Below, one piece after another: positions 1,495 to 59,635 of a stretch of 64,000 nucleotides of DNA. Numbering within the stretch: the first letter of the stretch is position 1; each line of letters begins with the position of its first letter. Source of the DNA: Bdellovibrionota bacterium. Lineage in GTDB: Bacteria; Bdellovibrionota_C; UBA2361; JAAYZI01. The translations under genes and the position numbers were made by a program. The notes beneath the pieces were generated by a model. It was not told the DNA's origin, did not search any database, and worked only from the letters and a program-made list of their open reading frames with translations. The stretch spans positions 384,001-448,000 of the forward strand of contig JBMNIF010000001.1 of the NCBI GenBank assembly GCA_050950765.1, read 5' to 3'.

Positions 1495-2160
1495 AATTGG
1501 TGCCACCCTTCAGTGGCTGGGATGGTGTTAGAAAAAGAAAAGAAGGGTGGCACCAGTTTTTTAACCTCCATAGAGACCTAACCGATCCCGCTTTTTACTT
1601 GCAGCCCGTCCTAGTGTCCCTGAAGGGTGGCACCAGTGAGCAGGGCTAAAGGTGGGTGTCCTAATTGGGGTTTAAAGGCTACAAGAAGGGTGGCACCAGA
1701 TCTAGCTAGCCGAATTTTGGTTTTTTGTTTGAATTTAGCATGTTAGAAGTTAAGTTGTTGAAATATAAGGGGAGGCTCTAAGACTGACGAGAATGTAATG
1801 AAGGGTGGCACCAGATTTTTAACCCCCGTACGAATCTAGCTGATCCCGCTTTTTAGTTGCAGCCCGTCCTAGTGTCCCTGAAGGGTGGCACCAGTGACAA
1901 GCCAGTGGACAGGGCTAAAGATGGGTGTCCTAATTGGGGTTATGAAGGGTGGCACCAGATCCGGTCACCAGATTCAGCTAGCCGAGTTTTGGTGTTTTTA
2001 AAGTTAAGGTATTGAAATATAAGGGGAAGTTTTAAGACAGATGAGAATGTAATAAAGGGTGGCACCAGTTTTTTAACCCCCGTAGAGACCTAACCAATTC
2101 GTTTTGCAGTTGCAGCCCGTCCGATCGTCCCTGAAGGGTGGGGGTAGTGACAGGGTTAAA
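1495..2160. repeat. Mosaic REP/BIME-like cluster 1
   Basis: ~8 GAAGGGTGGCACCA cores (first two inverted), 2 GGGTGTCC cores, re-used modules. Confidence 0.9.
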
Positions 2161-7242: not shown

Positions 7243-8035
7243 TCGGTTTTAGTGCCACCCACCAGTAAGACGTGATCTGGCGGAAAACTGGTGCCACCCT
7301 TCAGGGACGATCGGACGGGCTGCGACGGCAAAACGAGTCAGCTGGGTCTGTACGGAGGGAATTTACTACCACTCACTAGGGACGATTGAGCGGGCTGATA
7401 TTAAAAAGAAAGTTAGTTAGGTTTTCACGGAGGTCAAAAATTTGGTGCCACCCTTCAGTGCAGATTTTAGCTTAAAGGGATGAAGTCTTTAAAATCAATA
7501 TGTTAGCATTTAACTGAAAGTGGCTAGTTTTGGTGCCACCCACTAGGGACAGCACTCCTTCAGGGACAGCTGAACGGGCTGAAGCTGCAAAGCGGATCGG
7601 CTAGATCTTTACGGGGGTAAAAAGTGGGTGTCCTAATTGGCAGCAGGGCTTTGGAGTTGGTGCCACCCTTCAGTGCAGATTTTAGCTTAAAGGGATGAAG
7701 TCTTTAAAATCAATATGTTAGCATTTAACTGAAAGTGGCTGGTTTTGGTGCCACCCACCAGTAAGACGCGGAGGGAATTTACTACCACCCACTAGGGACG
7801 ATTGAGCGGGCTGATATTAAAAAGAAAGTTAGTTAGGTTTTCACGGGGGTCAAAAATTTGGTGCCACCCTTCAGTGCAGATTTTAGTTTAAAAGGATGAA
7901 GTCTTTAAAATCAATATGTTAGCATTTAACTGAAAGTGGCTAGTTTTGGTGCCACCCTTCAGGGACGGCTCTTCAAGGACGGTTGGACGGGCTGCAACTG
8001 CAGACGAGTCGATTAGGTCTGTACGGAGGAAGGGG
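7221..8035. repeat. Mosaic REP/BIME-like cluster 2
   Basis: ~8 GGTGCCACCC cores, three near-identical ~88 bp modules containing AATCAATATGTTA. Confidence 0.9.
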
Positions 8036-18594: not shown

Positions 18595-18817
18595 AAAAGG
18601 GCACCTTTTTGGTGCCACCCTTCGGGGACGACAGAACGGGCTCAAACAGAAGAGTGAATCGGCTAGATCTTTGACGGGGGTTAAAAAACAGGTGCCACCC
18701 TTCTTTATTATAACCTTGCCAAGCAAAGTGTTTAAACCATAAAATGGTAATAAACTAATAATATCGATATGTTAGCTAAGTTTTAAAATTTAACTAAAAG
18801 TGGGTGTCCTAATTGGC
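18595..18817. repeat. Mosaic repeat cluster 3
   Basis: Two GGTGCCACCC cores and one AAAGTGGGTGTCC. Confidence 0.88.
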
Positions 18818-20292: not shown

Positions 20293-20757
20293 AAAAAGGA
20301 CACCCACCTTTACTGGTGCCACCCTTCTTTATTAGAAGGTTAGTAAGCAAAGTGCCTAAATCTTAAAATGCAAACAATCTAATAATATCGATATGTTAGC
20401 TAAATCTTGAAATTTAACTAAAAGTGGGTGTCCTAATTAGCTAGCAGCAGATGGCTCTTGTGTCGCCCACCTAAAAAGGACACCCACCCTAAGCTGAAGG
20501 GCGGCACCAAATTTTTGACCCTCATCCAGATCTAGCCAATTTATTTTGCAGTCGCAGCCCGTCCAGTCGTCACTGAAGGGTGGCACCAAATTTTCTCCCC
20601 AGCCTTCCAAAAAGGACACCCACTTTTACTGGTGCCACCCTTCTTTAGTAGAAGCTTGGTAAAGAAGATATTTTAATCTTCAAATGGCAACAATCTAATA
20701 ATATCGATATATTAGCTAAGCCTTAGAATTTAACTAAAAGTGGGTGTCCTAATTAGA
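20293..20757. repeat. Mosaic repeat cluster 4
   Basis: Both cores in both orientations; two copies of ~125 bp unit. Confidence 0.9.
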
Positions 20758-24897: not shown

Positions 24898-25425
24898 TTA
24901 AAAAGGACACCCACTTTTATAGCGCAGTTCTTAAGGATAGTAACCTAGATGATTGGGTGTCCTATTTATGTTGTGGTGTAAGAAGCTCGGTAGGCTAAGG
25001 TTGGAATCTCCCCCTCCCTAAAAAGGACACCCACTTTTAGGTGATTTTTAAGTTTTGGCTAACATTCTGATAGTACTAACTTATTGCAATTTTAAGCTTT
25101 GGGTGTCTTGTTTACAAAGCGCGCAACAGATGAGGGTGGCACCTGTTTTACCGTATTCTATTGTTAGTACTGTTAGTGCAAAGTTGGTCTCTTTGTAAAT
25201 TTGGGTGTCCTATTTGCAGGTCGCAGTTCTTAAGGATAGTAACCTAGATGATTGGGTGTCCTATTTATGTTGTGGTGTAAGAAGCTCGGCAGGCTAAGGT
25301 TGGAATCCCCCTTACTTACTTACTTACTTAAAAAGGACACCCACTTTTAGGTGAATTTTAAGTTTTGCCTAACATTCTGATAGTACTAACTTATTGCAAT
25401 TTTAAGCTTTGGGTGTCCTATTTAT
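24898..25425. repeat. Mosaic repeat cluster 5 with internal direct duplication
   Basis: GGACACCC/GGGTGTCC pairs; ~24923-25108 repeated at ~25222-25418. Confidence 0.9.
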
Positions 25426-27837: not shown

Positions 27838-28947
27838 ATGTTTTTAATTTTACTTTTTTTGTCATTGATAGTGTCTGTGACCACGCCGAGCGTCGGAATG
27901 TGCGTTGCTGTTATAGGTGCTTTACTGGCAATGTATTTAGAAAAGAAAAAACACGGTTTAGGGATCTTTTTTTCTGGTGTGGTGACGCCGCTTTTTTCTC
28001 TCTTTGGTTCTGGGACGTTGCTTTTGTTCTTTTTAATCTTTCTTGCTTTTCGCAAGGAACGCGTGCATTTTTGGAAACTAGGTCGTGCTTGGTTTTATCT
28101 CGCTTTAATCGCTTTCTGGGTAGTGGCAGAGCTTATTTGTGGAATATTTTATTTTAGAGATTGGCTCGATCATATCACCACAACGCCACCGCACGTTATT
28201 TTTTCTTTTGTTGAAGCTATCAGATTTTTCTTGTTTATTGGGTTATGTCATTTATTTTCTGAGAGTGAATATAAAAGAGAGCAATTTTTTAGAGGATTAG
28301 TAAGGGGCTTAACAATAAGTGCATTTATTGTGTTGGTGCAGTTGTGTTTGCCGCAAATTCGGCACCTTTTTATAAATCAGAATACTTTTTGGAGTTCTAT
28401 CGGAAGATATCCTGGAACGTTTAGTGATCCAAATGCTTTTGGAGTCTTTGTAGGATTGGCGTTTGCGCCGTTACTTTGTTTTGCCCAGCGCAATAGGTTT
28501 GCACGTTTTTTAATGTTGTTGTGGATTGTATTAGGGGTGTTTTCAGGATCTTGCAGCTTTTTTATCGCGCTCTTTTTATATGTTGCTGCTTGGCTATTCT
28601 TTTATAGTAAGAAGTTCTTCTGCGCTTCGCTCTGTTGTCTGTTGTTATTTTGTGGGGGTGTTAAATATTTTGCAAGTTCAGATCCAGATAGATTTTTAAG
28701 AGTGGTAGATACTCTTCCCAGCGGACTTAGTCGGATCGCTAAAATATTTTCTTCAGATGGAGTAAGTGAAGCTTTAAATTCTAGGATAGTATTTTGGAAA
28801 ATTGATTGGAAGATGTTGACGGAATCGCCATTTGGAGGTTTCGGGATTTTGTCAGGGATAGGGTTTAATCAGTTTGAAAGATTTTTACCTTATTACGGTG
28901 CAAAAGAATCTCAAAAAGGACACCCACTTTTAGGGTGGCTGCTTTAG
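27838..28947 (+). pseudogene. O-antigen ligase (Wzy_C) family membrane protein, probably 3'-truncated
   Basis: GTFSDPNAFG, SRIVFW, GIGFNQF; last codons come from a repeat core. Confidence 0.65.
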
Positions 28948-29625
28948 AGTTTGGTTGATCTTGTTGCCACTGCTCTGATTTAGGACACCCACCAAAGCCA
29001 CCAAGTTCATCCGATCTATTTAGGACACCCATTCTAGTTAACGCCCCAACTTTTGTTAACGTTTTGATATTATTAAATTGGCTTCAAAAAGGACACCCAC
29101 TTTTGGTAGTGGCTGCTTTAGAGTTTGGCGGTCTACTGCCACTCGCCTTGTTAGAGATGGTATTAAATTGGGTGTCCTAATTGGAATTCCCTAATTGGAA
29201 TTGTGTCAGTGAATTTGGGGTGTCCTTTTTGGTGCAGCACCAACCTGCTGAGGGGAAGGGGATTTTGGGTGTCTTAATTAGAGTCGTAGGGAGGCTGCTT
29301 TAGAGTTTGGTTGATCTTATTGCCACTGCTGATTTAGGACACCCATTCTAGTTAACGCCTCAACTTTTGTTAACGTTTTGATATTATTAAACTGACTTCA
29401 AAAAGGACACCCACTTTTGGTAGTGGTTGTTTTAGAGTTTGGCGTTCTACTACCACTCGCCTTGTTAGAGATGGGATCAAATTGGGTGTCCTAATTGGAA
29501 TTGATGATGAATTTTGGGTGTCCTTTTTGGTGTAGCACTAGTTTGCTGAGGGAGGAGATTTTGGGTGTCCTTTTTGGTGCAGCACTAGTTTGCTGAGGAA
29601 GGGGATTTTGGGTGTCCTAATTGGG
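28912..29625. repeat. Mosaic repeat cluster 6 with ~310 bp internal duplication
   Basis: >10 GGACACCC/GGGTGTCC cores. Confidence 0.9.
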
Positions 29626-29632
29626 AGTCGTC

Positions 29633-30337
29633 CTACGCAACGATTAGTTCTTTCACGGAGCCCTCAAAGATTTTTGCACATTCTTTTAAAAACTTGTCAC
29701 TTGTACGCGGGATATTTTTGAATTCTTCATCAAGAACCGTTTCTCGAGGGACAAAAGGTTGCAGGACATAACACATAGCATCTTGCACAAGGTCTTTAAT
29801 GGCGATCAACTTGTCTTTTGTATGATATCCTTCGATAATAGTGGTACGAAATTCATAAGGCACAGAACCGTTTTTCAGGATCTTAATGGTTCTTTTTAAG
29901 GATTCTGTATCTTTAAATCCTGTTAGATACGGATAATCTTCCAGCGGACACTTCACATCGACGGCGATATAATCCACTAACGGTAGTAATTCCTCCATAA
30001 TTTGAGGATTAGAACCGTTCGTATCAAGTTTTATCTTTAAATCACGATCTTTGAAAAACGTAATTAAAGCTTTTAAATCTGGACTGAGGGTTGGCTCTCC
30101 GCCTGTAATTACAACTCCATCAATCCAATTATCTTTAAAAGTTTGGCAAAATGTATCTAAATCCTTCCAAGTAATGTTTTGATCTGCATTAGGGAGCAAC
30201 GTTTTATTATGGCAGAAGCGGCACCTGAAATTACACCCACTGAGAAAAAAAACTATAGACAGGTGCCCTCTAAAATCCAACATCGAAGGTTGTGGTAAAT
30301 AACCAAAAACGGGTGATGGTAATGCTTCCTCTATCAT
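29633..30337 (-). CDS. nrdG: Anaerobic ribonucleotide reductase activating radical SAM protein
   Basis: CNFRCRFC, TGGEP, LDTNG. Confidence 0.93.
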   Translation of the reverse strand: MIEEALPSPVFGYLPQPSMLDFRGHLSIVFFLSGCNFRCRFCHNKTLLPNADQNITWKDLDTFCQTFKDNWIDGVVITGGEPTLSPDLKALITFFKDRDLKIKLDTNGSNPQIMEELLPLVDYIAVDVKCPLEDYPYLTGFKDTESLKRTIKILKNGSVPYEFRTTIIEGYHTKDKLIAIKDLVQDAMCYVLQPFVPRETVLDEEFKNIPRTSDKFLKECAKIFEGSVKELIVA

Positions 30338-30513
30338 TTTTAATTGTCCTTATAGCTAGCGCATGAAGAACTTGCGAAAAATCAAATCTTTCGCAATACC
30401 TGTAATCAATCCTGTTCTCAGAAGGTAACAGAAAACAAAAAAGCAGCCAAAATAGCTAAAGAAGACAGGGGAAAATAGAAATATTTTCTCCCCTGCCTTA
30501 TAGTAAACAAGAG

Positions 30514-30903
30514 CTAGGCAGCTTCACGAGCTTGTTTTAAAATTTCTATTACTGCTGCCGGTGGAATTATACCTTTCCCCGCTTCAGAATAGTCAGTTTG
30601 AATCCCGATAAAACGGAGCGGTCTCAATCCTGTGGTTGTGTGAGAGTGCTCCGGATTGTGTATCGCCTCAAAGGTATCTGATCCCGCCACCTTTTTTTCT
30701 ACAATAAACGACGGAATTCGTTGAGGATTGAGGCATTCACGTTGTGCAAACGCCACTAAGCCATCCTCAGTAGAGATATCGTTGTAGCGAACTTCAAAAT
30801 CCTGCCAATCTGTCGAAATTAGTTTATCTAATCTCGCTTTAAGCTGCGCACACTTGCTGCAACCCTTCTTCCCGTATAGATCTATTCGATATTTCTTTTC
30901 CAT
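30514..30903 (-). CDS. Small thioredoxin/glutaredoxin-like protein
   Basis: YGKKGCSKC, RIPSF; between nrdD and nrdG. Confidence 0.8.
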   Translation of the reverse strand: MEKKYRIDLYGKKGCSKCAQLKARLDKLISTDWQDFEVRYNDISTEDGLVAFAQRECLNPQRIPSFIVEKKVAGSDTFEAIHNPEHSHTTTGLRPLRFIGIQTDYSEAGKGIIPPAAVIEILKQAREAA

Positions 30904-33643
30904 TTCCAGATACTCCAGTTACTGTTTTCTCAATCTTACTAACTAATCCAACCTTGGCAGCGTTTACCATCAGATCCGCTGGACACTCCACAGAGTATTG
31001 TCCACGATGACGATCTAACAATTCTCCGTAGCGTTTCGATTTGTTCCAGTTTGTAATCTTACTGAAATATCCGACAACGCGAGTTTCTCCGACGACATCT
31101 TCAGAACCACAAGCGCGGCACTGAGTCTGCAAGCCACGACTAACGTGATAGCAGGAGTTGCAGTGCGTAAATTCAGGAGAGATTGTCAACTGTGCAGATT
31201 GTGTTTCAAAGAACGTCTCTGTTACCAATCTTGCTATGGAAGCAGCTGAAGGTTTTTCCTCTCCGATAAAGGCGTGTATCATAGCGCCTGATTCAATCAT
31301 GCTATGAAACTTGCTTTGCGCGCGCACACGTTCAACCAATGAAACGGGGGCTTCAGGTGCAATGTGAACTGAGTTTGTGTAATACGCCACGTCTTCGCTC
31401 TCTCCTTTGACGATGTTTTGAGCTTCATCTTGAAAGTAGATCAGGTCGGTGCGTGCTAAACGGCGTGCTGCACTTTCTGCAGGCGATTCTTCAAGAGAAA
31501 ATTTAATTCCGTGTTCCTCCGTAAGATCGCGTATTTTTGTAAACATTTTTGCTGTTAAGCGAAGAGCCATATCCATAGCTTCTGCATCTTCGTGGAGCTC
31601 TTTTCCGCAAAGAAATTTCACAGCATCGTTTACGCCAATTAAGCCGATAATATAAGTACATTTATCTAATTCGACGTAAGGACGTCCGTCACAAGCAGTG
31701 CGTCCAATCTGATAAAGTGGACGACCAGGCTCACTCATCATTTCAGCGATCTTTTGCTTCTTCTCCAGATGTGCTTTAGCAGCAAGATCCATCGTAGCAT
31801 TAACTTCTTCCCAAAGTCCTTCCAAAGTCTTGTTGCCTTTGCGTGAAGCACGATAAGCAGCTTGCGGAATATTAACTGTTACATTTTGGAAACCGCAAAA
31901 ACGCATTGATTCCGGATGGGTTAACATTCTGTTGTCATTTATAGTTGTGCGAAGCCTGCAACAGGCAGAGAGTGTTACAGCATCTCTATCAAAGATGAAG
32001 TAAGTTGAACCGTTTCTGCTTGATAATTCACAAGCTTGTTGAAAGACTTTAAACTGCTCTGGGTCTTTAAAAGTCTCTTCACTGATGTGGAAGTCGCATT
32101 TCGGGAACTCAAAAACACGTCCGTGACGGTCGCCTTCTGCAAAAACTTCAAGTAAGGCTGAAGCAAAAAGTCTAGCTTCTTCTTCATATTCACCGTAAGT
32201 AACGATAGCTTCGCCACGTTGTTTAAGGTCTTCCTCAACCGCTTTGTCGTAAATAAAGCCGTGCGTTTTATCGAAGCACTCTCTTAAAACAACACGTGAA
32301 GAGCCGTCTTTATCGACGTAAGTTAGCTGCATCAGCTTATTACCGGAGGTATCTGTCTCATCTAATAACTCTTCTGTGACGGGAACTTTGGTACCATCCG
32401 AGAGTTTTAACATATAAGAACCACCAGGACCAATAGCAGGGACTTTTTTAAGATAATCTGGAATTCCAGTATGAATGTTAAAATCCAAGAAGAGTGTTTG
32501 TCCGCCACGAGAAAACGCATTTTGAGAGCCGTTAAAAATCAACTCCTGCGCAACCTGTTTTTTCTCTTTTGCGGTTAGACCTTCTAAGAGTGGCGCATAA
32601 AAGATGTTGATGTACGCAATGCCGAGAGCACCTGCATAGTTAGCTTGCATAGAAGCTAAGAAGGTATTGAGGTGACCTGTTAAAACGGAGGCACTGCGCG
32701 CCGGATTTGACTCGGTATTTAAGTTTAACAAACCACGCAATCCGTATTTTTTCACGTACTCGATAGAGTGCGAAGAGCAATAAACACGATGCGGATAGCC
32801 TAAGTCGTGCAAGTGGATACTGCCTGTGTCATGAGCACGCTTAACTTCCGGAGAAAAGATCGTATCAAGTGCCCACTGCTTCAAAATTAGCTCAGCCAAT
32901 CCTAAATTAACAGCCTCTGGATTGTTATTAACGATGTTACTATTCTCTGTGGACTTAGTGAACATCAATTGTTCAATAAAATTTTTGGGCACTGCATAAA
33001 GGGAGAGGTCGCGTAGTTGATCGTGACAACCGCGACCAGAAAGCTCGTTGTTGACCAATTCGCGAATTAAGGTAGTGCTTACAGTTGTAAAATTACCTGC
33101 AATAACGTGATTTTCAACAGCTTTGGCGACCGAGTTTGCAACTTCAAGTGAAAGAGAGGTCTCGTCCATTAGTTGTGCAACAATACGTTGTCGATCCCAA
33201 GGTCGTGTAATGTCTTTTGTGGCAGATTCTACTAAAAGGAGGCTGGCATCTGTAACGTCGACATTTCCTCCTGCTGTATCTGTGACACGAATTCTATTTC
33301 TGGCTAATTCACGTTGCTTGCGATAGCGCTTATAGGCGGCTACCTCTTGTGGGTGCCCAGATTCGGCTAAAACGACTTCAACTAGATCTTGAACATCTTC
33401 AATTTTTGGTATCCGTTTGCCTGTTTTGTCTTTAACGACGTAATAGTCGCATTCAGGATTGTTTAATTCTGATACGACAGTTTTTGCGATCTGAGACGCC
33501 AGTCCTGTTTGGACCTCTGTATTATTTTTATGAGAGACGCTATCTAAAACCTTACTTACCGCACGTTCAATCTTTTGCGATTGAAAAGGCACGATAGAAC
33601 CGTTCCGTTTTTGAAATCCATGAAAACCGTGATTTGCATCCAT
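30839..33643 (-). CDS. nrdD: Class III anaerobic ribonucleoside-triphosphate reductase with two ATP-cone-like domains
   Basis: HLHDLG, YC, CCRL, PAES, YYTNS, CxxC…CxxC, RVVGY glycyl radical motif. Confidence 0.96.
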   Translation of the reverse strand: MDANHGFHGFQKRNGSIVPFQSQKIERAVSKVLDSVSHKNNTEVQTGLASQIAKTVVSELNNPECDYYVVKDKTGKRIPKIEDVQDLVEVVLAESGHPQEVAAYKRYRKQRELARNRIRVTDTAGGNVDVTDASLLLVESATKDITRPWDRQRIVAQLMDETSLSLEVANSVAKAVENHVIAGNFTTVSTTLIRELVNNELSGRGCHDQLRDLSLYAVPKNFIEQLMFTKSTENSNIVNNNPEAVNLGLAELILKQWALDTIFSPEVKRAHDTGSIHLHDLGYPHRVYCSSHSIEYVKKYGLRGLLNLNTESNPARSASVLTGHLNTFLASMQANYAGALGIAYINIFYAPLLEGLTAKEKKQVAQELIFNGSQNAFSRGGQTLFLDFNIHTGIPDYLKKVPAIGPGGSYMLKLSDGTKVPVTEELLDETDTSGNKLMQLTYVDKDGSSRVVLRECFDKTHGFIYDKAVEEDLKQRGEAIVTYGEYEEEARLFASALLEVFAEGDRHGRVFEFPKCDFHISEETFKDPEQFKVFQQACELSSRNGSTYFIFDRDAVTLSACCRLRTTINDNRMLTHPESMRFCGFQNVTVNIPQAAYRASRKGNKTLEGLWEEVNATMDLAAKAHLEKKQKIAEMMSEPGRPLYQIGRTACDGRPYVELDKCTYIIGLIGVNDAVKFLCGKELHEDAEAMDMALRLTAKMFTKIRDLTEEHGIKFSLEESPAESAARRLARTDLIYFQDEAQNIVKGESEDVAYYTNSVHIAPEAPVSLVERVRAQSKFHSMIESGAMIHAFIGEEKPSAASIARLVTETFFETQSAQLTISPEFTHCNSCYHVSRGLQTQCRACGSEDVVGETRVVGYFSKITNWNKSKRYGELLDRHRGQYSVECPADLMVNAAKVGLVSKIEKTVTGVSGNGKEISNRSIREEGLQQVCAA

Positions 33644-33815
33644 TAAATCCCCCCACTAATTATTTATTAGAGTATTTTGATAATTATCTGAAAATTGGTG
33701 TTACAAACCTTAATCATGCAGATACAGACAGGATATTTGCAAAAAAACGAACCAGCAAAACGCGTCTGTAACATAGTGATAGTCAATTTCAGATGACTTT
33801 CCTGTTTAACGAGAT

Positions 33816-33863
33816 ACACAATATGTAGTGGTGTGGCGTTCTGTCAACCACTAGATTTAGTGG
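33816..33863 (-). promoter_or_regulatory. Tandem NrdR boxes flanking a TTGACA -35 (minus strand)
   Basis: ACACAATATGTAGTGG and CCACTAGATTTAGTGG, 32 bp apart, upstream of nrdD. Confidence 0.85.
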
Positions 33864-34021
33864 TTTTGAGATTTTTTAGGTGGATGGGTCTAGGGACAGA
33901 ACCGGAAATATAACAGTCTCAAATGGTTAGCGAAAGAAGAACATTGTAGGAACTAAAAAAAAAGTGGATTTCTATTTAAGACAGCGGTTGATTGTGAAAC
34001 AAATCAGGTTTTAGCCTCATT

Positions 34022-34172
34022 CTAAAAAGGACACCCAAACTAATCTTGAATCTTAATGGGACACCCAATAATTGCAAAGAGAGGAGCCAATTCAAAAGTG
34101 GGTGTCCTAATTATTTTAAGCAAAGATTGGGTGTCCTAGTTGTTTTTAAGATTGGGTGTCCTAGTTGTTTTT
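34022..34172. repeat. REP-like cores left of RAYT
   Basis: 2x GGACACCC then 3x GGGTGTCC. Confidence 0.85.
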
Positions 34173-34238
34173 TAGGAAACTTTTAAATTTTTTAAGCGAC
34201 ATGACCTTCTGAAACTTTTAAATACAAGGAGGTTATTA

Positions 34239-35291
34239 ATGACCACAGCAAGAAAAGATATTATTATAGATGGTGTTGATGCAATTTATCATTGTACAAG
34301 TCGTTGTGTACGAAGAGCTTATCTGTGTGGTAAGGATTTTTTGACCAATGTCAGTTATGAACATAGAAAAGACTGGGTACGTGATAGGTTGATCTTTTTA
34401 TCCTCAATCTTCAGCATAGATATCCTTAATTATTCCATTATGGATAATCACCTGCATGTTCTCATTAAGACTAATTTCAGTAAGTTAAAAACGTTATCAG
34501 ATAGAGAGTTGGCTTACAGATGGAGAAAGCTTTATCCGAAAACTTTTAAGGGAAAGGATAAGCCTGCTACTCCGAGTGAAGAGGAGGTGACGTTGCTGGT
34601 TAATGATACTGTTATGATGCCCAAGATACGAGAACGTCTAGGGAGTGTTAGTTGGTTGATGAAGTCTTTAAGTGAGGATATTGCTAGAAAAGCAAATAAA
34701 GAAGATGAATGTACAGGACGTTTCTGGGAAGGTAGGTTTGGTTGTAAAAGGGTTTTAGATATCGGAGCTGTGTTAAAATGCGCTGTCTATGTAGATCTAA
34801 ATCCTATTCGTGCTGGGAAAGCGAAGACGCCTGAAGATAGCGAATTTACCAGTGTTCATGACAGAATAGAAAGTTCACTTGCTACAGAAAAATTAAAAAC
34901 AATAGGAATTAAGAGTAGGTTAACTAAAAGAGAGTTTAAAGTTCTAGAAGAAAAGGCAAATAAGAGTAGTTGGCTTGCCCCTATATTTAGTACTCCAGAT
35001 AAAAAAGGTTTATTACCTGTGGATTTTGATGACTATTTACAGATTTTGGAATGGACTGGAAAGCAGTTAGTTGAAGGGAAAAGGGGCTTTATTCCGTTAG
35101 ATTTAGTGCCCGTTTTAGAGAGATTAAAGTTAAATTTAGAGAATTGGACTGAAAGTGTAACAACTTTTGGGAAGGATTTTCACTTGGTAATAGGAAGTGA
35201 AAGCTCAATTAGAGCAATATCAGCAGAAAAGAATAAGAAGAAGTGTTTCCACGGCATAGCAGCGGCAAGAAAAACATTCTTTAATGGTTAA
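34239..35291 (+). mobile_element. REP-associated tyrosine (HUH/Y1) transposase, RAYT-like
   Basis: YHCTSRCVRR, MDNHLH (HUH), FWEGRF, YVDLNPIRAG; GGAGG SD. Confidence 0.92.
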
Positions 35292-35454
35292 AATAAGGGA
35301 CATTAAGTAAAAAACACGCTCAAGCTTTCCTGCTAGACAGGAAAGATCTATCAAAAAGGTGATTTTTAGCGGCAAAAATCATTAATAAGAGAAAATTCTA
35401 GAAAAAATCGAGCAAAATTAATTGCTATAAAGCTAGATTTTAGCCTCTTCGCAG

Positions 35455-35535
35455 TAAGTTGGACACCCACCTTTAAGAGGGGCTGATAGGACGCTAAAAG
35501 TGGGTGTCCAACTTACGAAGGTGGGTGTCCTATTT
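35455..35535. repeat. REPIN-like inverted doublet right of RAYT
   Basis: GTAAGTTGGACACCCAC…GTGGGTGTCCAACTTAC plus a third core. Confidence 0.88.
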
Positions 35536-35840
35536 GCTATTCTGGAGCAAAAAGCTAGAATTCGCTGAATCGAGGAGGGGGACTCTCTCCTTTGATCTTT
35601 TATAATTTATAGTGGGTATCAGTTAATTTAAGGATTTAACTAGGGTTAATATCTATACCAAAACGCTACCTATTTTATGAGTTGTCTTCTGTTTGTATGC
35701 AAAGTTCTATTACAAAAAGTACAGAGGCAACTGTTGATTAGCTAGTTTTTTTAACTAATCAATAGTTGTCTCCGTGGCTAAGAAATGGTCTTTGCTACTG
35801 ATAGAGATGACATTCATATTTCCTATAGAAGGAGAAAATC

Positions 35841-37756: not shown

Positions 37757-37876
37757 CTGACAAAATCCTTAATAACTAAAATATCCATACGAAGAATTGC
37801 TATCTATATTATATATCGGATTTTACCGTTAAGTCGTTGCGTGAAGAAAATGATTTTAATCAAAGGAAGTTGAAGG

Positions 37877-38046
37877 AAGTTGGACACCCACCTTTTGGGG
37901 AGGTGTGAATAGAACGCTAAAGGTGGGTGTCCGAATTGCAGCTAGGTATCTGAATTATTGTTAAAAGTGGGTGTCCAAATTACGGTTCTGGCAAGAGTGG
38001 GCGTCATAATGGGAGGATAAATTGTGGTTAAAGTGGGTGTCCTAGT
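37877..38046. repeat. REPIN-like doublet and extra GGGTGTCC cores
   Basis: Resembles 35455-35516 including its spacer. Confidence 0.85.
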
Positions 38047-38826: not shown

Positions 38827-38980
38827 GAAGTTTAAAATTTGACTAAAAGTGGGTGTCCTTTTTGAGATCGTGTTGAGAGTTTTGCAATTAAGGAGTTTGA
38901 ACCTTCACAAATACAATAATTTAATAATATCAAAGCATTGGCAGAAGTACAAAATTTAGCTAAAAGTGGGTGTCCTAAAT
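38827..38980 (+). repeat. IHF-site module ending in AAAGTGGGTGTCC, twice
   Basis: Matches 39975-40060. Confidence 0.8.
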
Positions 38981-39818: not shown

Positions 39819-39911
39819 AAAGGTTTTCCCCCTGACTTTTTAGTTTTTTTGTCTAAATTTGCCTATCAACAAAGTTAATATGTTAAAATATAAGGTCGAA
39901 TGGATTGAGAT

Positions 39912-40062
39912 CCCCCTTCAGCTGCGGGCTTGAAAATTGGTGTCACTCATCTTTTAAGCGCTTTACGATCAAGGGACTTAAACTTTAAAACTGAAACAAT
40001 TTAATAATATCAAGGCATTAGCAGAAGTTTAAAATTTGACTAAAAGTGGGTGTCCTAATTGA
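39912..40062 (+). repeat. Degenerate ~125 bp repeat unit
   Basis: TTGGTGTCACTC…TATCAAGGCATTA…AAAGTGGGTGTCC. Confidence 0.75.
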
Positions 40063-40316
40063 GGTCGCAGCGGAAGTAGGTGAACTGGTGCTAAAATGAA
40101 GAAAGAAAAAGTATTTGGGTTTCTGTCTGTGGCTTGCGAAAAAGGGGTAATTATGACCTAATCTTCGTTAGTTTTTATCCTTATGGTCGTTTTTCAGAAT
40201 TATATTATTGCAATGGATGAAAGTTGGCGATCATTTTTCTCTATTTTGATGCGATAAAATAAGCTTTTTATTAAAATTCAACAGAAACTACTTATAGAAA
40301 ATAAAGGGGCTCTTTT

Positions 40317-41195: not shown

Positions 41196-42005
41196 ATTGG
41201 TGCCACCCATCAGGGACAACAGAACGGGGTGCAACTGAAAAGCGGGATCGGCTAGGTCTGTACGAAGGTTAAAAAAATTGGTGCCACCCACCAGTAAAAA
41301 GTGGGTGTCCCAATTAGCATCTAATATTGTAAATAGGACATCCAAAATCTAAAATTATAACATCTAGTAATATCAAGACATTAGCAAAGCTTAGAATTTG
41401 GCAGTTCTGGTGCCACCCTTCAGCGTCGCAGACGTTCTGCACTGCAAATAGGACATCCAAAATCTAAAATCACAACATCTAATATTATCAATATGTTAGC
41501 AAAAATTAGTGTTCGGCAGTTTTGGTCCCACCCTTTAGGGACGGTTGAACCCACTAGGGACAGCCGAACGGGGTGCAACTAAAAAACAAATTGGCTAGGT
41601 CTCTACGGAGGTAAAAAGTGGGTGTCCTAATTGGCTTGGACGGCTAGATGCTGGTGCCACCCACCAGTGGCGGTACCCTTCGGTGACAATTGGACGGGCT
41701 GAAACTAAAAAGCAAGTCAGCTAGATTTCCACGGGGGTTAAAAATTTGGTGCCACCCTTCAGGGACGACAGAACGGGCTCAAACAGAAGAGTGGATCGGC
41801 TAGGTCTGTACGGAGGTTAAAAATTGGTGCCACCCACCAGTGGCGGTACCCTTCGGTGACAATTGGACGGGCTGATACCAAAAAATGAGTCAGCTAGATT
41901 TCTACGGGGGTAAAAGGTGGGTGTCCTATTTACGAGATGACGATTGAGCGGGTTGCAACTGCAGAGCAAGTCAGCTTGCGGGGGTAAAAAGTGGGTGTCC
42001 TTTTT
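41196..42005. repeat. Mosaic repeat cluster 7
   Basis: ~7 GGTGCCACCC and ~6 B-type cores with re-used modules. Confidence 0.9.
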
Positions 42006-57764: not shown

Positions 57765-59635
57765 TTTAGCTGAAGGGTGATAGTAGAATCTAGCAATAGT
57801 TTGGGTGTCCTTTTTGGAGGGCAGGGGTATTTGCAAATTTTTAACCTCCGTTCAGAGAGCTAGCCGATTCACTCTTCTGTTTGAGCCCGTTCAAGCGTCC
57901 CTGAAGGGTGAAGTGATGGAAAAATGAAGGGTGGCACCAAATTTTTAACCCTCTAACCAACGTAAACTTTTGCTAATGTCTTGATATTATTAGCTAGTGC
58001 GGTTTTTAAAGTTTGGGTGTCCTTTTTGGGGTGATGGAAAAATGAAGGGTGGCACCAGTAAAAGTGGCGTTATTGAAGGGTGCACCAGTTTTTTGACCCT
58101 CGCTGCTTCTTACTGAAGGGCTGCTTCTTACTGGTGGGTGGCACCAATTTCTAACCACCCGTCCAAGCGTCATAGAAGGGTGGCACCAAATTCGTCAAAT
58201 TCTAGGCTTTGACTAACATCTTGATATTATTAGCTACTGCGGTTTTTAGAGTTTGGGTGTCCTTTTCTTTTTGGGTTGAAAGTGGCGTCCCTGAAGGGTG
58301 GCACCAAATTAGTCAAATTCTAGGTTTTGACTAACATCTTGATATTATTAGCTAGTGCGGTTTTTTAAGTTTGGGTGTCCTAGTTGTAGCCGTCTTGGGT
58401 GGCACCAGTAAAAGAGGGTGCCCTAATTGCAAACCGTTGAAGGGTGGCACCAAATTTTTAGCGATAGTTTAGGTGCCCTAATTGAGGTTTGCCTCTGAAG
58501 TGATGGAAAAATGAAGGGTGGCACCAAATTTTTAACCCTCTAACCAACGTAAACTTTTGCTAATGTCTTGATATTATTAGCTAGTGCGGTTTTTAGAGTT
58601 TGGGTGTCCTATTTGCAAAGCCTTTTATAACTAGTGGGTGGCACCAGTAAAAGTGGGTGTCCTAATTGAGGTTTATCCTTCGAAGTGATGGAAAAATGAA
58701 GGGTGGCACCAAATTTTTAACCCCCGTCCAGATCCAGCTGATCCCGTTTTTTAGTTGCAGCCAGTCTTTCAACCGGTGGGCAACCGTCCCTGAAGGGAAC
58801 CGTCCTTGAAGGGTGGCACCAAATTCTAACCCTCAACCGGTGGGCAACCGTCCCAATACCTCGCAGCTCTCGTGATTGGGAGCTCCAAATTCTAACCCTC
58901 AACCGGTGGGCAACCGTCCCTGAAGGGAACCGTCCTTGAAGGGTGGCACCAAATTCTAACCCTATTTGCAAATTTTTAATTTCCGTTCAGACCTAGCCGA
59001 TTCACTCTTATGTTTGAGCCCATCCAAGCGTCCCTGAAGGGTGGCACCAAATTAGTCAAATTCTAGGTTTTGACTAACATCTTGATATTATTAGCTAGTG
59101 CGGTTTTTTAAGTTTGGGTGTCCTAGTTGTAGCCGTCTTGGGTGGCACCAAATTTTTAACCTCCGTCCAAGTGTCCCTGAAGGGTGAAGTGATGGGAAAG
59201 TGAAGGGTGGCACCAAATTAGTCAAATTCTAGGTTTTGACTAACATCTTGATATTATTAGCTAGTGCGGTTTTTTAAGTTTGGGTGTCCTAGTTGTAGCC
59301 GTCTTGGGTGGCACCAGATTTTTAACCCCCGTCCAAGCGTCCCCGAAGGGTGAAGTGATGGGAAAGTGAAGGGTGGCACCAAATTCGTCAAATTCTAGGC
59401 TTTGACTAACATCTTGATATTATTAGCTACTGCGGTTTTTAAAGTTTGGGTGTCCTATTTGCAAAGCCTTTAAGGGTGGCACCAGATTTTTAACCCCAGT
59501 GAAAACTGTCCTGCTGAAGGGTGGCACCAGTAAAGGTGGGTGTCCTTTTTGGGGTGCCAGTAAAGGTGGGTGTCCTTTTTGGGGTGATGGAAAAATGAAG
59601 GGTGGCACCAGTAAAAGTGGGTGTCCTAATTGGGG
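57765..59635. repeat. Mosaic repeat cluster 8 (largest, ~1.9 kb)
   Basis: ~20 co-oriented GGGTGGCACC and >10 GGGTGTCC cores. Confidence 0.95.

Follow-up and report, generated by a model that had tools for sequence, protein, structure and literature searches.

The region described here is a window of 64,000 nucleotides from the genome of a Bdellovibrionota bacterium (C1:384001-448000 of an assembly of 2.64 Mb in 5 contigs). It contains a gene that, with a probability of roughly two in three, encodes a resident, single-copy HUH nuclease of subclass 2.3 with GGACACCCA as its cognate site, a site that would have spread locally and entered the arrays of a second repeat system as a passenger. The association of GGACACCCA with the gene is observed, and from the sequence patterns we infer that the enzyme binds and cuts this word. 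The gene appears to work in the manner of RAYT and TIRYT genes, residing in the genome as an HUH gene and multiplying a short repeat cognate to it. New here are the mapping of duplication junctions, the assignment of the arrays to two enzymes, the gradient around the gene and the promoter motif. The features of the window are given below; cores are copies of GGACACCC unless named otherwise.

1500..2066, no strand: second-system array with 2 passenger cores
7252..7958, no strand: second-system array with 1 passenger core
18612..18811, no strand: mixed array, 1 core
20298..20751, no strand: mixed array, 5 cores and 3 second-system cores
24905..25420, no strand: array of 7 cores and one second-system core, 208 bp shorter in one other strain
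28918..29619, no strand: largest pure-core array, 12 cores, strain-variable
34022..34172, no strand: upstream core array; cores 34029 and 34059 point toward the gene, 34100, 34129 and 34154 away from it
34178..34199, + strand: putative ECF-sigma-type promoter, AAC-N16-CGA then C, from a motif match
34239..35291, + strand: HUH/Y1 transposase gene, predicted TnpA-Y1 subclass 2.3, from ORF, motifs and fold
35454..35530, no strand: downstream inward doublet (35461+, 35502-) plus a third core at 35523
37863..38044, no strand: pure-core array; 37863-37882 is a perfect 10-bp outer-flank duplication ending 1 base into the core
38851..38977, - strand: two-core array; the first-core segment is replaced in two other runs
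39904..40063, - strand: 154-bp segment flanked by 6-bp direct repeats, its end just outside core 40048
41200..42002, no strand: mixed array, 4 cores among second-system cores
57803..59628, no strand: mixed array, second core predominant

The transposase gene and its neighbourhood

The transposase gene is present as a single copy in the assembly, and its ORF (34239-35291, +) encodes a product of 350 aa. An earlier note on the window had described an intact HUH/Y1 protein, and this is borne out by the ORF and by an alignment of 24 homologs, in which H71-L-H73 and Y184 are invariant and W163-E164 and T204-S205 likewise. The motifs of the protein are NHLH (70-73), FWEGRF (162-167), YVDLNP (184-189) and TS (204-205), the HuH-Tyr distance counted from H71 is 113 aa, and the conserved C-terminal tail extends to about residue 347. 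The matches to Pfam Y1_Tnp (18.8 vs 23 bits) and to the NCBIfam RAYT entry NF047646 (31.9 vs 80 bits) are below the respective cut-offs. A PDB sequence search with the protein gave no meaningful match. The whole-protein model (pLDDT 87.7) exhibited E. coli TnpA-REP 4ER8 as the top match in both fold searches (Foldseek E 0.002; Z 12.8, rmsd 3.0, 158 aligned). A TIRYT-type helix-turn-helix was sought in the C-terminal tail (model pLDDT 85) with no clear match, and a fold search with the C-terminal 107 aa provided a best Z of 3.5 and no Foldseek match, which implies neither a known nor a new fold.

The survey that defines subclass 2.3 (Quentin, Siguier, Chandler, Fichant 2018; PMC6006769) gives as its criteria the motifs NHYH, WE, YVDLNP and TS, a HuH-Tyr distance of about 110 aa (55-aa insertion), a length of about 325 aa and a C-terminal domain. 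Because its motifs, TS pair, length and HuH-Tyr distance match these criteria, the protein is predicted to be a TnpA-Y1 subclass 2.3 HUH member outside the canonical RAYT groups. It resembles the surveyed proteins in length (350 aa against a median of 325), in HuH-Tyr distance (113 against a median of 110), in its HuH, WE, YVDLNP and TS motifs and long C-terminal tail, and in occurrence in Alteromonadales and relatives; its NHLH differs from NHYH by another hydrophobic residue (PMC6006769). The RAYT-type label of the earlier note holds for an HUH/Y1 enzyme tied to a non-canonical core, and has to be given up in favour of subclass 2.3 where class membership is concerned, given the NF047646 score.

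The protein family is large, with 6,400 matches among the 8,000 scored. One homolog of 592 aa (P0002), perhaps a tandem or fused form, scores far over the other matches at only 36% identity. In a quick tree of 102 sequences, built of the homologs of the query only, the protein groups with genes of the host order (5 rows with 95% and 10 rows with 96% SH-aLRT), and the 24 rows of this order need 3 changes. Viral contigs provided one weak, partial match, and 13 records of a plasmid collection, mainly large replicons, contain homologs.

ECF promoters have a spacing of 16 bases between their two boxes. The marks of an ECF-sigma promoter are AAC at -35 and CGAC or CGT at -10 (PMC5758882). The motif AAC-N16-CG[AT] precedes the gene in 19 of 30 homologs from the host order, against 1.7 in shuffled sequences, and in only 1/74 and 2/70 of the distant homologs, where sigma-70-like boxes are common instead (30/74 and 23/70). 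The putative ECF-type promoter appears to be conserved within the host order.

The neighbours that adjoin the element at 29633-33643 (-) are ordinary, namely an anaerobic ribonucleotide reductase (NrdD, ATP cone) and its likely activating enzyme. In two runs, 67 other bases stand in place of the 137 bp upstream of a 438-aa gene (window 35687-35825). This gene is itself variable at many positions among strains, and a faint match to serpins is the only one it has.

Inverted core ends and duplication junctions

The window contains 60 exact copies of GGACACCC against 0.57 expected, with a maximum of 3 in 100 shuffles. They fall in 14 clusters, one of which (13547) is a single match within an ORF; the earlier note had given about a dozen intergenic loci. 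Eight cores surround the gene (34029+, 34059+, 34100-, 34129-, 34154-, 35461+, 35502- and 35523-), and both sides of the gene hold one inward pair (34059+/34100- and 35461+/35502-); the earlier note had described inward-facing cores on both sides. The cores nearest the gene face away from it, contrary to the family norm. The upstream array contains its inward doublet at 34059-34107 and a perfect 25-bp tandem duplication with a core at 34123-34172, and the inverted match of the downstream doublet reaches 7 bases into the outer flanks. The cores had also been described as differing from GTAG-footed hairpins, and rightly so: three single cores tested exhibit no folding (z -0.9, -0.3 and +0.6), and the listed core contexts contain no GT[AG]G foot. 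Three inward pairs are predicted to form long hairpins (z -7.8, -3.1 and -6.1). Helical phasing of the GGACACCC core spacing is absent (147 spacings, R 0.05).

Homologs across phyla share the word RGACA[CGT][CG]CA as inverted ends of the gene. The top words found de novo around 80 GTDB loci were GACACCCA upstream and TGGGTGTC downstream. The family pattern RGACA[CGT][CG]C[AT] was drawn from this GTDB set and then tried on an independent metagenome set, in which an inward core was identified at 38 of 58 upstream ends (1 outward) and 39 of 66 downstream ends (1 outward). Over both sets of distant homologs, with flanks under 250 bases and truncated genes omitted, extraction of the flanking motifs as proposed in the earlier note recovered an inward core at 86/128 upstream and 84/141 downstream ends; the opposite orientation occurred at 6 upstream and 7 downstream ends, and far-window controls gave 5/102 and 7/104. 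The core as defined is missing from 42/128 upstream and 57/141 downstream ends, and addition of a related variant raises the ends with a core to 102/128 and 98/141. Among relatives of the host, the core is present at 33/34 upstream and 22/29 downstream ends. The median core position is -86 from the start and +193 from the stop, and the left and right variants agree within a locus in 40 of 77 cases, against 18.7 when shuffled. The main exception is a Planctomycetota clade, with the family core at 3/18 upstream ends and mostly G[TG]GCCA[CGT][CG]CA instead (10/18 upstream ends).

In the Planctomycetota subclass 2.3 homologs L068, L086, L093, L112 and L120, the end word is that of the second repeat system of the host genome (GGTGCCACCCA-type). 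Planctomycetota cores of this type show duplications that end at the first position of the second system.

In most homologs the core constitutes simple inverted ends and not REP doublets. Sequence identity between sister copies in one genome starts at the first core base, and the outer bases common to sister copies number 0, 0, 0, 0, 2 and 3 in six independent pairs (8 rows with two repeats removed). No hairpin was detected around the single core family-wide (median z -0.07, 225 ends). In a search for target-site duplications, repeats of at least 6 bp were found at just 2/76 loci, the same as for shuffled pairs. An empty site was sought at base resolution in Pseudoalteromonas, where records that lack the element exist, and at about 80% identity the junction is not placeable. 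A Pseudoalteromonas element in L273 has an imperfect direct repeat of about 107 bp on either side (L273:1166-1273 and 2686-2795), and a related record that lacks the element has this repeat once.

Direct repeats of the outer flank, the second copy of which ends at or in the core, occur at 86/225 ends against 12/497 control windows, with maxima of the end positions at 1 base (30) and 3 bases (21) inside the core. Perfect tandem units able to end at +1 or +3 were identified at 32/221 ends against 2/783 controls, and 20 of these 32 units are 10-12 nt long. When 384 cores were considered, 67 had a perfect unit ending between -1 and +8, and the unambiguous unit ends were 15 at +1, 12 at +3, 1 at +2 and 2 at -1. 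The junctions in L082, L092 and L115 come from complete or chromosome-level records, so short-read artefacts alone do not explain the pattern. Another class of units takes in the complete core and has two variable ends, as in the window at 34123-34172. In this genome a +1/+3 duplication is present in just 1 of 206 distinct core contexts (37863-37882, +1), and the nick-site signature rests on the homologs, not on this genome.

The enzyme most likely nicks within the core, 1 or 3 bases from its outer edge, and a fixed end in a conserved word combined with a free far end suggests that a site-specific nick is extended by a short stretch of synthesis and then resealed. The enzyme would nick the TGGGTGTC strand at +1/+3 and stay bound to the flank through Tyr184, host polymerase would lengthen the free 3' end outward over roughly one turn of the helix, and the 3' end so formed would resolve the tyrosine link to leave a one-sided tandem duplication. 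Nicks a few bases further in would copy the core itself, in direct or inverted orientation. Taken alone, this route on the TGGGTGTC strand falls a little short of even odds. A rather unlikely alternative retains the same enzyme and site with other chemistry, in which a nick on the GGACACCCA strand at +1/+3 would be joined to a second, unspecific nick about 10-12 nt outside, made on the sister copy at a replication fork, or in which the enzyme would cut both strands with a 2-base stagger. Such chemistry, the joining of sister strands included, would yield identical junctions, and the junctions are blind to which strand is cut. The two fixed positions 2 bases apart also resemble a stagger, and both kinds are seen together in two end arrays (L193 and L209). 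However, the far end of the duplication units has no fixed base, though a characterised TnpA-REP cuts at selected sequences (PMC8266576), and inner-side duplications are not enriched (7/225).

The junctions also bear on the far-fetched possibility that the core is a binding site, either an autoregulatory operator or a site for a host protein, and not a cut site. The left core is indeed located at a fixed distance just ahead of the promoter-like boxes, but an inverted core copy lies 3' of the gene as well, element copies start at the core, and duplications end within it.

Local and genome-wide arrays

Most repeat arrays of this genome belong to a second, six-copy transposase. The commonest repeat of the genome is GGGTGGCACC, with 967 copies and 48 in the window, and the second core written as the 9-mer GGTGCCACCC has 1,025 copies genome-wide. 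The second core flanks another HUH gene, which is present in six near-identical copies and encodes a protein of about 322 aa; along some 74 residues this protein has 28% identity to that of the window gene. The 191 clusters of the genome consist of 99 with the second core only, 60 with both cores and 32 with GGACACCC only, and 165 of the 221 GGACACCC cores are inside mixed clusters. Within the window, 25 of the 60 cores are in arrays where the second core is also present or predominates, which is incompatible with the earlier view that one core organises all dispersed clusters. The estimate that the system had colonised a tenth of the window fails for the same reason, as 6,302 bp (9.8%) is the figure for all window arrays together and the arrays purely or nearly purely of GGACACCC, summed from the cluster list, make up about 1,725 bp (2.7%). 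Judging from the cluster make-up, the window gene would account for about 1.7 kb of arrays nearby, and most of the 6,302 bp would be those of the second system.

The second core has one-sided duplications too, with a sharp end between GG and TGCC (weight 18.8 of 35). One 30-bp duplication in the window (59527-59586) ends at this junction point of the second system and carries a GGACACCC core. This duplication, together with the 165/221 cores in mixed arrays, is the basis for regarding GGACACCC as a passenger there: one core-containing module would have entered the arrays of the six-copy HUH element (GGTGCCACCC) and spread genome-wide with them.

The model of the earlier note, in which the window enzyme built all arrays of the window with both cores as its substrates, is highly improbable. 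Both cores are interleaved in 60 clusters, and the Planctomycetota members of the subclass with GGTGCCACCCA-type ends (10/18 upstream) carry the word of the second core. However, the second core is absent within 5 kb of the gene, flanks the six near-identical copies of the other HUH gene and is the only core in 99 clusters, and the closest homologs of the window enzyme have GGACA-type ends.

Further characteristics of the arrays are the following. Spacings between GGTGCCACCC cores of the same orientation follow a period of about 11 bp (631 distinct segments, R 0.45, the related copies being non-independent). The 3' end and right flank of the six-copy HUH gene are tandemly repeated (L001:2601-3025 and L002:1-850), and these tandem repeats have a variable start and an end fixed at the second core. 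Exact matches to the IHF consensus WATCAANNNNTTR are common in arrays of both cores, for example at window 38921-38945 and 40003-40025. Exact matches in the inner flanks number 31/196 for GGACACCC against 1.0 shuffled and 124/898 for the second core against 3.7, again with non-independent copies, and their distances step by about 11 bp. Three genes of the HU/IHF family are present in the genome, and the IHF matches in the arrays are reminiscent of E. coli BIME-1. As a feature of the family the IHF consensus was dropped, with 0/115 and 1/102 homolog ends matching.

The GGACACCC cores are concentrated around the gene, with 14 GGACACCC and 0 second-system cores within 5 kb and 38 and 7, respectively, within 10 kb; on the other contigs the density of GGACACCC is 0.51 per 10 kb. 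Of the seven pure clusters with two or more cores, five are located no more than about 6 kb from the gene; the other two, at a distance (C2:1243412 and C3:4800), were judged by eye to be chance matches in repeated coding sequence and were rejected. Core contexts near the gene are varied, with 43 kinds among 56 cores, and those far from it are more uniform, with 46 kinds among 140. The activity of the enzyme would fill intergenic gaps within about 10 kb of its gene, as if mostly in cis, and would leave the gene between two inward doublets in a REPtron-like arrangement.

Strains of the same organism differ in these arrays. The gene is in place in contigs of four other runs (4 of the 24 listed), with one contig spanning 31330-35687, and it is missing from none of these four. 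The differences in the arrays beside the gene include a 208-bp skip, a 314-bp return and a replaced segment, and the 154-bp segment ending just outside core 40048 is skipped in contigs of two other runs. Some differences are flanked by long direct repeats (16 and 31 shared letters), and some need only repeat recombination and no transposase. Part of the region is matched in RNA runs, a match that alone says nothing on expression.

Recombination of this kind belongs to an improbable alternative in which the gene is an idle relic and the copies of its end word arose solely through slippage, recombination and the second transposase. The single-copy gene found in place in another strain (contig 31330-35687), the location of 165/221 cores in mixed arrays and the strain differences between direct repeats would all be in keeping with such a relic. 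However, the ORF, the catalytic residues and the promoter-like motif are intact, the pure arrays cluster at the gene with 43 contexts among 56 cores, one pure array has a +1 junction (37863-37882), and the inverted copies are beyond what slippage produces.

An extended core pattern has 150 copies in this genome, 3 to 29 in 13 of the 14 relatives with the gene and 1 in the other. The earlier note had suggested counting in relatives with and without the gene, and the pattern is indeed rare where the gene was not found, occurring at most twice in each of 26 relatives; this comparison is partly circular, since the pattern was written after viewing these flanks, the counts include the genes' own ends and the kin are non-independent. 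With the stricter GGGTGTCCTA no relative exceeds 14 copies against 156 here, which marks the expansion in this genome as exceptional. Stand-alone inward doublets away from the gene are found in the relatives G018, G030 and G037. The doublets of G018 are spread over many contigs, so the cis bias would not be general, and their interiors are unique, which indicates that a site of roughly 20 bp, and not a whole miniature element, recurs there. The proposal that the doublets are copies of one miniature element was rejected on the G018 interiors, whose likeness to one another at the median does not exceed that of shuffles (18 vs 16.5), and for the one G018 interior tested no second copy was found.

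Relation to known HUH systems

According to the defining survey, neither automatic nor manual search found REP-like sequences for subclass 2.3, whereas the present analysis identifies a conserved inverted 9-mer, stand-alone doublets, arrays and probable nick sites (PMC6006769). The literature search found no paper linking the core, the junctions or the local spread to subclass 2.3, and figure 9 or additional file 5 of PMC3733652 may contain related repeats.

The TIRYT/TIRtron system (Di Nocera, De Gregorio, Rocco 2013; PMC3733652), with the repeat consensus GGGGWSAS, is similar in that inverted repeats of a non-GTAG kind enclose a tyrosine transposase gene and also occur elsewhere as dimers and clusters. 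Just the last six letters of this consensus fit at the eight cores of the gene, and seven fit at one; the homolog L063 has the full word. As GGACAC fits these last six letters, the words look like one series. However, 20 of 26 TIRYTs were placed in subclass 2.1 and none in 2.3 (Quentin, PMC6006769), and the sections of PMC3733652 compared describe no cut site or one-sided duplication.

The RAYT/TnpA-REP proteins of groups 2 and 3 share the HUH/Tyr fold and a single resident gene between inverted doublets, with non-autonomous repeats in intergenic DNA that are abundant away from the gene (PMC5581495, PMC8266576). Unlike in canonical RAYT systems, the repeats here have no GTAG foot and no single-repeat hairpin, and the protein is twice as long and below the NCBIfam cut-off. 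Canonical RAYTs are also characterised by single-strand cleavage at CT that depends on the repeat. The G018 doublets also differ from REPINs and BIMEs, since their interiors are unique and not copies of one element.

IS200/IS605 elements are not known to leave target-site duplications, and none were identified here for the family of the window gene. The TnpA of these elements (subclass 1.1) shares the HUH/Y1 core, but two different subterminal hairpins take the place of the inverted equivalent ends found here, YxxxQ that of YxxxNP, and about 150 aa that of 350 aa (PMC6006769, PMC8266576).

A wider proposal is tentative, and the odds lean somewhat against it: enzymes of subclass 2.3, and those of the TIRYT type, may be HUH nucleases that need no hairpin. 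They would recognise a word of 9 bp, nick inside it at either of two positions separated by two bases, and close the nick once the host has synthesised roughly one helical turn of DNA. In this way they would write tandem and inverted repeats locally, free of excision or target-site duplication and distinct from REP/RAYT, and here they would do so in cis, under a stress-type (ECF) promoter kept across the order.

The mechanism by which RAYT-like repeats are disseminated has been called unresolved (PMC8266576), and the survey that defined subclass 2.3 knew of no DNA substrate for it (PMC6006769). The junctions supply a candidate substrate, two candidate nick positions and a product in the form of a one-sided 10-12-nt duplication. 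In this genome two HUH repeat systems occur together, one of them local and the other spread genome-wide, and the word of the former is carried along in the arrays of the latter. An HUH nick-and-join enzyme that is specific for 9 bp and needs no hairpin would also be a possible tool.
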